From positions 3,162,001 through 3,226,000 of the forward strand of contig CM030334.1 in the NCBI GenBank assembly GCA_017654855.1: a DNA stretch of 64,000 nucleotides. The letters are read 5' to 3'. The position numbers were made by a program, and so were the translations under genes. The stretch comes from Podospora anserina. Taxonomy: Eukaryota. Below are positions 42,802-46,207 of the stretch, one piece after another (position 1 is the first letter of the stretch; each line of letters opens with the position of its first letter). The notes under the pieces were generated by a model. That model ran no database searches and had not been told where the DNA came from. It saw only the letters and a program-made list of their open reading frames with translations.

Positions 42802-43630
42802 ATGTCCCACCACTGCCACGACGAACACCACGACCACTCTCATGGCGGGGAGGGAGAACATGACCACAGCGACGACATCACGCCCGCGCTGCAGTTTTCG
42901 CTGTACCAGCACATTGACTTTGACGGGGTGGCGACGCTGAACGAGGCTACTTATGGGTCAGGGAAGGAGGTGCTGAAGAAGACGTGGGCGGAGAGGTTGA
43001 GGGTTGAGCCTGAGGTTGAGAGCGATGGGGATGAGCAGTTGTTGGTGAATGTGCCGTACGTATTCCTACTGTTTTTTTTTTCTCCTGTTTGGGTATAAGA
43101 AAGAAGTGAAAACTGTAGGGCTTTGGAAGTTGGCTGATTTTGGGAGGGAAGATTTACCGGACAGGTCAAGCTGCATAGTATCTTGTTGAGGACATCAGAC
43201 AGTGATTCTGCGCCAAAGACGATGAAAGTTATCATCAACAGGGATGATGTCGATTTTGATGTTGCTGAGAGCGCAACCGCGACGCAGGAGTTTGAGTTAG
43301 CCCGGACGGGGGAGGTGCAGGAGGTTGCGGTGGTGAGGTCCCCCTTCACTTCATACAAAATAAAATGCTGAGAGACTAAAAAAAAAAAAAAATTAAAAAA
43401 AAAAGAGAAGAGCCCGCTTCAACGCCGTCCGCCGCCTGTCCCTCTTCTTCCCCGACAACTTTGGCGACGGGGACGAGGACGTCACGAGGATATCGTACAT
43501 TGGTTTCAAGGGGGAGTGGATGCAGCTGGGACGAGCACCGGCAAACATCCTGTACGAGGCGGCGGCGAACCCGAGTGATCACAAGGTTAAGGGGGTGGGG
43601 GTTAACCAGATGGGAAGTGACATTCAGTAG
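42802..43630 (+). CDS. PITH (DUF1000) domain protein, PITHD1-like
   Basis: His-rich N-terminus, SLYQHIDF, ESDGDEQLLVNVPFTGQVKLHSI, RISYIGFKGEW, YEAAANPSDH. Exons 42802-43055, 43152-43332, 43406-43630. Confidence 0.9.
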
Positions 43631-43686
43631 TAAGAGTCAATTCATGAATAAAATAGGGGGTTGATTTGTTAGAGACAAAAAAAACA

Positions 43687-44603
43687 CTACATGAAATCAT
43701 CCTCCCAATCTGACCCCCTGTCCTGGTTGCTGGACTGGGCCAGGTTCTCCTCGGTGAAGATGTCGTCGTAGGCGTGGTCCTTTTGGTATTTCTTCTCCTG
43801 GCGCTCTTTGGCGATACGGGCTTCTTCTTTTTTCTGTTTTTATTTTTTTTCCACACACACGTCAATTAACCAAGTTAAAAGAGATAGAAACGGGAGGGAT
43901 GACTAACCCTCGCCAGAAAAGCACTATGATCCCTCTTCCTCAGCTCTTTGAGTCTATCCTCCTTCTCCTGCCTCAAGTCAGGGTGCTTCTCCACCTTGGT
44001 CTTGTTGAGCCTGTTCACGATGGGGTTCTCCCTTTGGGGGATCAGGATCCGCTTGACTTTCTTCTGGTCCTTGAACGAGACCTGGCCGACGGCCATGGAG
44101 CCGTCCTTTTTCAGGTTGGACCAGGGGGTGTAGATGATGGTGATGTTGTCCTTTTTGTTGCCCTCGATCGAGTTAGCCTTTGTCAGCTGGCCGAGGTCGG
44201 TGAGGAGGGGGTCGGGGATGGCGTCCCAGGTTTGGCCTTCGGGGAGGCGGAGGTAGATGTGGGCTGAGGAGAGCTTGTCTACGTGGAACTGCCTCGAGCG
44301 TTAGCGAGGGGATAGGCATGAGTGACGAAGGGGTGTGGTACGTACCCTGAAGAAGAGAAGAGTATGAGGGTGAGTTCTGTAGGTAGGTAGAGGAGGTCTT
44401 GGCTGGGACCGGGAACGGTAGGTGAGACAGGCTTACCAGACATCTTCCTCCCAGCCGTGCTTGATCAGCTCTTCGTCTGTGAGATGTTAGTTTCCGTTCT
44501 TCGAACATGGACTTGAACTAACACACTCACTCTCAAACTTGTCCTTGCCGACATAAATGTACGCCGGCGGGTCAACCACGGTCGAGGTGAAATAGTAGAC
44601 CAT
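43687..44603 (-). CDS. CCDC25: CCDC25/Jlp2 (DUF814, NFACT-R domain) protein
   Basis: Exons 44603-44531, 44476-44437, 44346 (1 nt), 44288-43908, 43833-43687 give MVYYFTS...[37 protein letters not shown]...QLTKANSIEGNKKDNITIIYTPWSNLKK...WEDDFM. Confidence 0.93.
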
Positions 44604-45058
44604 TTTGACTCGATTTGCAGAAGATGACCTAAAGAGTGTATGATATACCTGCGGCTGTAAGATCTCTGCTCGCCCTGCTGCTCAGCGTTGCTCCAAAGAG
44701 AAGTGAAGAGGGAGCTCGAGAACCTCTGCAACCCAAAACCAATCAATGAATGAGAGGACCAAGTGCAGGCAGGCCACTTCAGCCTTGAAAGGGTTAGGGT
44801 TAAGGCTTATCATGCCCAATCCCCGGTAGGGGCAGATCGGTTTATCGGAGCCCGAATCCCAGTCCAGTTCGAGCTTCCCAAATTTCTCTGCTGCCGCCGC
44901 GGCCGATCGACCTTGAACCCGCGACACCTCGCCGTCGTCGCCGCCTTTTTTTCTCACCAGGGGTTCGACGCCATAACCCCAATGCCATAACCCGACGACA
45001 AGCACACCGAGAGAACCAATTGACCAACCCCTCGAGGGTGCATCACACAGCAACAAAA

Positions 45059-46207
45059 ATGGCCCCCCGACTGGCGCCAGCAGGCGCAGGACTCACCCTC
45101 CGACTACCCCTCCGAACAACCTCCCCGGCCTCCCTCCTCCGAACAACGCAATTCCACACTTCCACCCCCCAATCCGTAAAACTCGGCTGGTCCACCCTCC
45201 CCTCCCGCGCCAAACCAACCCGCTTCAACCAAGTCACCTCGGGCCTCCCCGCCCCCACCGCCGGCCCAGCCGCCGCCCTCAAGCGAAAAGCCCAGTCCAC
45301 GCCCGTCCGCGCCGGCGTGCTGGCCATAAAGAAGGGCATGACCGCCTTCATGGGCCTGACCGGCACACGCATCCCCTGCACCGTCCTCCAGCTCGACCGC
45401 GTCCAGACCGTCCTCAACAAAACAAGAAAAGACCACGGGTACTGGGCCGTGCAAGTCGGTTTCGGGGAACGTGACCCGAAAAACATTGGCGCGCCGATGC
45501 TGGGGTACTACGAAGCAAAGGGCATCGCGCCCAAGGAACAACTCGCGGAATTCAAGGTCAGGGATGAGAAGGGGTTGCTGCCGGTCGGTGTGCAGCTCAT
45601 GCCGGACTGGTTCTACATCGGGCAGAGGGTTGACGTGAGGAGTAACTCCCGGGGTATGGGTTTTGCGGGTGGCATGAAGAGACATGGGTTTTCGGGGCAG
45701 GAGGCGTCGCATGGTAATTCGAAAAACCATCGGACTATTGGTTCTGCTGGTCCTTCGCAGGGTAGCGGCAGCAGAGTGCTGCCGGGGAAGAAGATGCCCG
45801 GACGGATGGGGAACCAGAGGGTTACGGTGCAGAACCTGCCGATCCTCCTGATTGATAACGATCTTGGGATCGTGGTTGTCAAGGGGGCTGTGGCGGGGCC
45901 GAAGGGGTGCGTGGTCAAGATTCAGGATGCGTGCAAGAAGCCGCCGCCGCCAGAGGAGCACATTGAGAAGACGATGAGGGCTTTGAAGGAGAGGTTTCCC
46001 AACGCGGAGGAGCATTTGCAGCAGGCGAGGGAGAGGCATCTCGAGCTGAAGAGGGCCAGACGGGAAAAGAGGATAGAGGAGATTTTGACTGGGGGGTGGG
46101 AGCCGACGAGGGAGCAGGCCGAGATGATGGAGCGGGCGGCTGCTGAGGATGGGCATGAGAGTTTGGGTGGGGAGCAGCAGCAGCAGCAGCAGCGGGCTAC
46201 GTTGTAA
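45059..46207 (+). CDS. MRPL9: Mitochondrial ribosomal protein uL3m (yeast MrpL9)
   Basis: Presequence, GVLAIKKGMT, RGMGFAGGMKRHGF, HGNSKNHR..GS, GRVLPGKKMPGRMG-type L3 motif, KGAVAGPKG. Single exon. Confidence 0.94.
   Translation: MAPRLAPAGAGLTLRLPLRTTSPASLLRTTQFHTSTPQSVKLGWSTLPSRAKPTRFNQVTSGLPAPTAGPAAALKRKAQSTPVRAGVLAIKKGMTAFMGLTGTRIPCTVLQLDRVQTVLNKTRKDHGYWAVQVGFGERDPKNIGAPMLGYYEAKGIAPKEQLAEFKVRDEKGLLPVGVQLMPDWFYIGQRVDVRSNSRGMGFAGGMKRHGFSGQEASHGNSKNHRTIGSAGPSQGSGSRVLPGKKMPGRMGNQRVTVQNLPILLIDNDLGIVVVKGAVAGPKGCVVKIQDACKKPPPPEEHIEKTMRALKERFPNAEEHLQQARERHLELKRARREKRIEEILTGGWEPTREQAEMMERAAAEDGHESLGGEQQQQQQRATL

Follow-up and report, generated by a model that had tools for sequence, protein, structure and literature searches.

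In the window, a stretch of 64,000 nucleotides from Podospora anserina, a gene of the CCDC25/JLP2 family is read from the minus strand. A preliminary description of this DNA had placed in the gene a coding exon of one nucleotide, the G at 44346, between introns of 90 nt (44436-44347, hereafter intron A) and 57 nt (44345-44289, hereafter intron B), and all these elements were indeed found at those positions. The complete gene model, from the start codon to the stop codon and with the evidence for each element, is the following.

44531-44603, minus strand: coding exon 1, with the ATG at 44603; covered by RNA contigs, which join 44531 to 44476
44477-44530, minus strand: intron 1, 54 nt (GTGAGT...CTAAC...CAG); precise 54-nt skip in three of three RNA-like runs
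44437-44476, minus strand: coding exon 2, 40 nt, ending in ...GAT GTC TG, that is, with bases 1-2 of the Trp codon; covered by RNA contigs
44347-44436, minus strand: intron A, 90 nt (GTAAGC...TTCAG), phase 2, inside TGG; gone from the mature RNA contigs
44346-44346, minus strand: single-nucleotide exon, G, third base of the Trp codon; needed by the open frame, and RNA skips 147, not 148 nt
44289-44345, minus strand: intron B, 57 nt (GTACGT...CTAAC...GGCAG), phase 0, after TGG; skipped alone in one X1 contig
43908-44288, minus strand: coding exon of 381 nt, starting with TTC CAC GTA GAC AAG at 44288 and holding most of the NFACT-R domain; Pfam PF05670 and RNA contigs
43834-43907, minus strand: last intron, 74 nt (GTTAGT...CAG); 74-nt skip in three of three RNA-like runs
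43687-43833, minus strand: final coding exon, with the stop codon (the protein ends in ...WEDDFM); gene model and RNA contigs

Translation of the possible gene models showed how much depends on the single nucleotide. The five-exon model that keeps the G at 44346 is alone in giving an open frame, of 213 aa. Taking out 44436-44289 as one intron shifts the frame, as had been claimed, and leads to a stop after 40 codons, while retention of either intron brings stops in frame.

The gene product is an NFACT-R protein of the CCDC25/JLP2 family. Against the Pfam profile NFACT-R_1 (PF05670, cut-off 29.8 bits), the 381-nt exon scores 70.6 bits and the full 213-aa product 114.5 bits, the latter over profile positions 1-112 of 112. 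Homologues are named in the sources coiled-coil domain-containing protein 25, DUF814 protein or JLP2; the closest named protein is that of Cercophora samala (98% identity over a 127-aa query), which points to a Sordariales-type ascomycete, and the 213-aa product is identical to P0001, a protein known from Logan contigs only. In the family alignment A1, the tryptophan whose codon is completed by the G is nearly invariant, with a conservation of 90% or more across the 20 full-length rows.

A neighbouring gene lies divergently on the plus strand at 45059-46204, its start 455 nt from the JLP2 start codon. A Ribosomal_L3 domain (43.8 bits) was found in its ORF of 382 aa, whose N-terminus contains much Arg, Ser, Thr and Pro; such a product would fit a putative mitochondrial ribosomal protein.

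Spliced RNA and splice signals at the junction

Among the runs listed for this stretch, 18 contain about 0.62-0.66 of the sampled words, approximately the non-intron share of the stretch, and six contain all of them. Contigs of three RNA-like runs from three studies (X1, X2 and X6) and of one DNA-like run (X19) were mapped on 43600-44700. No run is recorded as RNA; X1, X2 and X6 were treated as such because their contigs lose all introns precisely, and contigs without every intron at GT-AG borders are the pattern of spliced mRNA. The X19 contig is identical to the window over 43600-44700 and has no joint, and it may be the window's own source rather than an independent sample.

One contig in each of X1, X2 and X6 (depths 265, 51 and 60, respectively) shows three skips, of 54, 147 and 74 nt, where the model has its introns. 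At the key joint, placed from 44287 to 44435, 147 of 148 nt are skipped, with 2 nt fitting either side. This is to be expected, since an aligner is unable to place a 1-nt exon and the kept G matches either the G that opens intron A or the one that closes intron B. As 147 of the 148 nt are removed, the mRNA keeps one G and therefore reads GTCTGGTTCCAC, exactly the junction that had been predicted. The mature RNA thus retains a single nucleotide between two excised segments in all three RNA-like runs.

A second contig of X1, 97 nt long and of depth 16, connects 44288 with 44346, so that exactly the 57 nt of intron B are skipped, and the ends of this joint, CT..AC on the plus strand, are GT..AG on the gene strand. 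The contig keeps the 3' 44 nt of intron A attached. Removal of intron B before intron A would thus occur at least sometimes, and this one oddly built contig provides moderate evidence that intron B can be excised alone, via the donor after the lone G.

The same contig contains a second join, which leads from 44266 in the exon back to 44389 in intron A through a 6-nt CTCCTC microhomology. This join has no GT/AG and is not a lariat junction, and the contig ends seem to repeat like a 67-nt cycle; a template switch or an assembler cycle may be its cause.

The reverse intermediate, with intron A removed and intron B retained, was not found in the contigs of X1, X2 and X6, and neither was a joint that skips all 148 nt. 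Contigs drop rare forms, and the absence of these two forms therefore carries no evidential weight.

We also considered the splice signals. Both introns are canonical GT...AG introns, whose donor and acceptor dinucleotides are all intact in the genomic DNA. In intron A, 86% of the last 22 nt before CAG are pyrimidines; a strict CTRAY branch motif is missing from it, and the motif is matched only in relaxed form, 24 and 18 nt from its 3' end. Intron B has its branch A (in CTAAC) 12 nt from the 3' end, and its donor, GTACGT, is present before any splicing. On reading the sequence, a canonical intron is left whichever of the two is removed first.

Taking RNA, signals and the related loci described below together, we are confident that 44346 is a true, constitutively included 1-nt exon between two ordinary U2-type GT-AG introns, lying in an invariant TGG codon. 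Intron A follows TG and intron B follows TGG, so that a single G is left between them. Each intron has its own donor, its own branch and pyrimidine region and its own acceptor, and each would be recognised by intron definition. Short fungal introns are usually recognised across the intron, and a vanishing exon would therefore be no obstacle in itself. Moreover, no splice site would have to be created by a prior splice, and whichever intron goes first, the other would stay normal.

The order of the two reactions is a different matter. The acceptor of intron A and the donor of intron B overlap within about 3 nt, where two spliceosomes could hardly sit simultaneously, and U1 pairing at the donor of intron B (about -3 to +6) would cover the AG of intron A; with such an overlap, removal would have to be stepwise. 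The sequential removal proposed earlier is in this respect a reasonable deduction, while its direct support consists of the one X1 contig in which intron B is gone and intron A is kept, which is thin. The context of the intron B donor would be AGG/GT (slashes mark exon-intron borders here and below) before intron A is removed and TGG/GT afterwards, marginally worse at -3. This change agrees with the B-first intermediate but is no proof of a fixed order. The exonic base itself is fixed as G because Trp has one codon, and a G would also suit the consensus at acceptor position +1 and donor position -1, a point made for a Fusarium exon as well (PMC12940212).

Related loci and annotated proteins in other fungi

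Metagenome contigs were scanned with the family alignment, which gave 80 loci, 77 of them readable at the Trp site. Results showed three states of the site. The layout TG/GT..AG/G/GT..AG/TTC was found in 22 of the 77 loci, 21 of them complete; in the remaining one, L001, the AG/G/GT core is present and the contig stops within intron A. Ten loci have a single phase-0 intron directly after TGG, at the position of intron B only, and in 45 TGG TTC is uninterrupted. A fourth conceivable state, with intron A only (TG/GT..AG/GTTC), was found in none of the 77 assessable loci. As ten loci carry an intron at the B position only, intron B is therefore a free-standing intron.

Among the 45 uninterrupted loci, 41 are genomic, with introns elsewhere, and four are complete intron-less ORFs on short contigs (L006, L050, L070 and L074), probably transcripts among the metagenome records. 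Over the first 43 residues of its large exon, L006 does not differ from the B-only loci L021/L022. A Tuber protein shares 95% identity with L050, which, being a likely transcript, does not demonstrate that Tuber lacks the introns.

The preliminary description had suggested looking for a conserved AG-G-GT core in orthologous loci, and the related sequences bear it out: beyond the presence of the layout in 22 of 77 loci, AGGGT is found in 20 of the 20 distinct two-intron sequences (the window included), in which the introns themselves have drifted. In these 20 loci intron A measures 48-90 nt and intron B 48-163 nt, and their sequences are unrelated; all donors are GT and all acceptors AG, with variation within the usual fungal range. 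The strict CTRAY motif is present in 14 of the 20 A introns and 10 of the 20 B introns, the window's own intron A being among those without it. By chance, a usable AGGGT core, with two introns of at least 35 nt each, is found in about 3% of shuffled intervals (about 0.03 per locus). In two Terfezia-like loci both introns can be aligned, and there the core CAACAGGGTAA and the CCCTAAC of intron B are conserved, while an indel shifts the branch region of intron A.

A second intron position was noticed in these loci, between ...ANSIEG and NKKDN, about 130 nt past the match start and absent from the window's gene. It is occupied in L018, L021-L025, L029, L032, L035, L037, L040-L043, L047-L048 and L051-L052 and further in L060, L064-L067, L069, L071-L072, L076 and L078, and it recurs in loci of all three states of the Trp site. 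Six of these loci (L064-L067, L076 and L078) belong to a distant lineage, with about 51-79% identity to the best-matching homologues, in which the B-position introns are only 31-35 nt long and similarly tiny introns follow downstream. An ESM Atlas search with one of them, the B-only locus L065, gave generic NFACT-R clusters only (best score 0.86), which pointed to no particular taxon.

Metagenome loci were placed by their nearest named homologue, in some cases at only 57-74% identity; nearest homologues were used rather than a tree because the protein is short and highly conserved. L058 and L073 are nearest to Terfezia claveryi (82-86%), which we take to represent the Pezizomycetes. L052 is nearest to Penicillium cinerascens (83%) and L060 to Cladophialophora / Capronia (73-74%), presumably Eurotiomycetes. 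For L077 (Coniosporium uncinatum, 92%), L071 (Coniosporium apollinis / Cryomyces, 86% over 43 aa) and L043 (Elasticomyces, 69%) we assume an affiliation with the Dothideomycetes, and for L001 and L005 (Coniochaeta, 84-90%), L002 (Thyridium, 83%) and L004 (Madurella / Canariomyces, 81-82%) one with the Sordariomycetes. Judged by these placements, the two-intron layout spans loci whose nearest named relatives lie in four classes of Pezizomycotina.

For the intron-less genomic loci, the nearest proteins are those of Cladosporium and of Pleosporales and Leotiomycetes type, and the B-only loci form two groups, one Dothideomycetes-like and the other the distant lineage with 31-35-nt introns. The simplest reading of this distribution would be that the arrangement is old, going back to the Pezizomycotina ancestor or further, and was lost several times, other lineages having lost both introns together (no intron left) or one of them (intron B left). 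The two B-only groups give a weak hint that intron B may be the older intron and that intron A may have been added 1 nt upstream of it.

Annotated proteins carry the trace of this structure. We scored 333 homologous proteins at the Trp site: 151 have the expected [V/I/L]W before FH, 69 lack exactly two residues, [VI]W, 35 have an odd insertion at the site and 78 have a different or truncated N-terminus. At this site 255 proteins are readable, and 104 of these are damaged there (69 gaps and 35 insertions), which gives good support to the earlier expectation that gene finders would mis-annotate it. A single species can be annotated both ways, as are Verticillium dahliae (P0110 / P0112) and Fusarium avenaceum (P0080 / P0097), and Apiospora arundinis has three versions at the site. 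The nearest named proteins of the two-intron loci are mostly damaged (P0121, P0276, P0302, P0217, P0108, P0206, P0020 and P0270), and those of the intron-less loci are intact at the site. In this comparison of sequences the damage signature follows gene structure, and the two-residue gap would result from a predictor choosing a weak donor one codon earlier.

What this means for databases is that 104 of 255 readable proteins lack an invariant Trp or carry it garbled, a 1-nt exon being something that predictors cannot place. A gap of two residues at a conserved motif, beside an over-long intron, can serve as a flag for more such exons. Judging by the annotation signature, many ascomycetes used in laboratories or known as pathogens probably have the arrangement, among them Fusarium, Verticillium, Aspergillus and Penicillium.

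Alternative readings of the arrangement

We asked whether the arrangement could act as a regulatory gate, in which a 148-nt skip would cause the frameshift and lead to nonsense-mediated decay, JLP2 output being tuned by the mode of removal. The splice from the donor of intron A to the acceptor of intron B, 148 nt, would be a fully canonical GT-AG splice with a stop after 40 codons, and the persistence of the arrangement in several fungal classes could reflect selection; however, exact intron loss is rare, which can also account for this persistence. Moreover, the 41 genomic loci without both introns and the 10 without intron A argue that the arrangement is dispensable, and a 148-nt joint is absent from the three RNA-like runs, though contigs drop rare forms. 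We consider such a gate unlikely, and the on/off switch through skipping and nonsense-mediated decay that had been put forward is speculation, the frameshift alone being demonstrated. An extended version would have the second intron gained once, in a Pezizomycotina ancestor, 1 nt upstream of an older phase-0 intron, and the pair preserved over hundreds of millions of years through its use to the cell: the forced order in which the overlapping introns leave, with the frame-shifting canonical skip as the other outcome, would form a kinetic gate that works through nonsense-mediated decay and sets the level of a protein related to ribosome quality control. To this combination, too, we attach little probability. 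If it were true, this 1-nt exon would exceed all known ones in age and would be the first to have a function.

The 147 nt could instead leave in one step, as a single non-canonical intron (TGG/TA...AG/TTC or TG/GT...CA/GTTC) in which the internal AG-G-GT would be a coincidence. An aligner does report one 147-nt skip with 2 nt of ambiguity, and the mature RNA is identical under both readings. Coincidence would, however, have to place AGGGT in every one of the 20 distinct loci, where shuffling predicts about 0.03 per locus, and to do so amid introns that are otherwise unconserved. One contig lacks the 57-nt intron B alone, at GT-AG ends, ten related loci have intron B only and at the same position, and both halves have typical fungal intron lengths with branch-like motifs of their own. 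The X1 intermediate, the related loci and the Terfezia-like pair make a one-step intron very unlikely.

That the lone G is an assembly or sequencing error, in a real gene with one ordinary intron, is a formal possibility raised in the preliminary description and has next to no probability: nothing was found in its favour, the skip of 147 nt in RNA from three studies agrees with the assembly, the layout recurs in 22 loci from other fungi, and the X19 DNA contig is identical over 43600-44700, though it possibly has the same source as the window.

We give just as little credit to a stwintron, in which one intron lies inside a splice signal of the other and is removed first: two abutting introns in a gene of Pezizomycotina, the group in which stwintrons were described (PMC5587772), do recall one, but no donor, acceptor or branch region is interrupted, both orders of removal leave a canonical intron, and the one nucleotide between the introns is exonic and retained in RNA. 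The statement of the preliminary description that this is not a classic stwintron holds. The stwintron forms [D1,2] and [A2,3] were both rejected, as no GT or AG is completed by a prior excision. A recursive splice site, with a zero-length exon, was likewise rejected: one G is retained and the donor GTACGT pre-exists.

Long introns of Drosophila contain recursive splice sites with zero-length exons, at which AG/GT abut and removal is stepwise. At such a ratchet point nothing is retained, the donor is regenerated after the upstream splice and the introns are many kilobases long, whereas in the CCDC25/JLP2 gene a G is retained, the donor pre-exists and the introns measure 57-90 nt. After these alternatives, the reading that we prefer is the one given above, of a constitutive 1-nt exon between two ordinary introns.

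Comparison with known one-nucleotide exons

Exon definition plays a larger role in plants. The 1-nt exon of Arabidopsis APC11 is constitutive, lies between two spliceosomal introns and was first mis-annotated (Guo & Liu 2015, PMC4674806). There the exonic base is an A (A333), the gene is a plant gene and reporter constructs were used; in the CCDC25/JLP2 gene the base is a G, the gene is fungal and the case is known from sequence and public RNA (PMC4674806 for the former).

The Fusarium CYP621A P450 gene, which its authors present as the second case overall and the first in fungi (Nelson & Syed 2026, PMC12940212), is closer to ours. Both are fungal nuclear genes with an AGGGT core, in which a G completes a codon of a conserved motif and its omission breaks the phase, and in both the evidence comes from comparative alignment and public RNA reads (PMC12940212). 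The CYP621A exon is the middle base of a Gly codon in a P450, whereas the CCDC25/JLP2 exon is the third base of a Trp codon in an NFACT-R protein; CYP621A is described in one genus, while the nearest relatives of the CCDC25/JLP2 loci lie in four Pezizomycotina classes. In the CCDC25/JLP2 case there are, in addition, one contig that suggests a singly spliced intermediate and related loci with intron B only or with neither intron.

In the basidiomycete Coprinopsis cinerea, a long-read annotation reports 13 exons of 1 nt in 13 genes (PMC12230235). These exons indicate that fungi handle 1-nt exons repeatedly, and their omission leads to premature stops, as in CCDC25/JLP2. This is a genome-wide count in which the genes are unnamed (PMC12230235), and a CCDC25 orthologue could be among them. 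The preliminary description called 1-nt exons extremely rare; few cases are published, but CYP621A (PMC12940212) and the 13 exons of Coprinopsis (PMC12230235) make them less exceptional than it had implied.

The stwintrons of Pezizomycotina (Fekete et al. 2017, PMC5587772) resemble the CCDC25/JLP2 introns in three respects: a complex intervening sequence is removed step by step, as would also be the case in CCDC25/JLP2, orthologues have introns at positions shifted by 1 nt, and once one of the two introns has been lost from the DNA, an ordinary intron is left. In stwintrons the internal intron breaks up a splice signal, with no exonic base to separate the two, whereas both CCDC25/JLP2 introns are intact and independent and one base is kept (PMC5587772 for the former).

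In the openly accessible article texts searched, no description of a 1-nt exon in CCDC25/JLP2 was found. The CCDC25/JLP2 exon is a new case, unusually widespread and probably unusually old.

In conclusion, 1-nt exons represent the lower limit of what the spliceosome can keep, and published cases are few. The case of CCDC25/JLP2 stands out among them by its breadth in Pezizomycotina, by its natural variants and by the systematic annotation errors that it causes. Moreover, a small, well-expressed and conserved gene of housekeeping type offers a tractable system for the study of an overlapping acceptor and donor and of the two spliceosomes that have to use them, for which the natural B-only and intron-less versions are ready-made controls.
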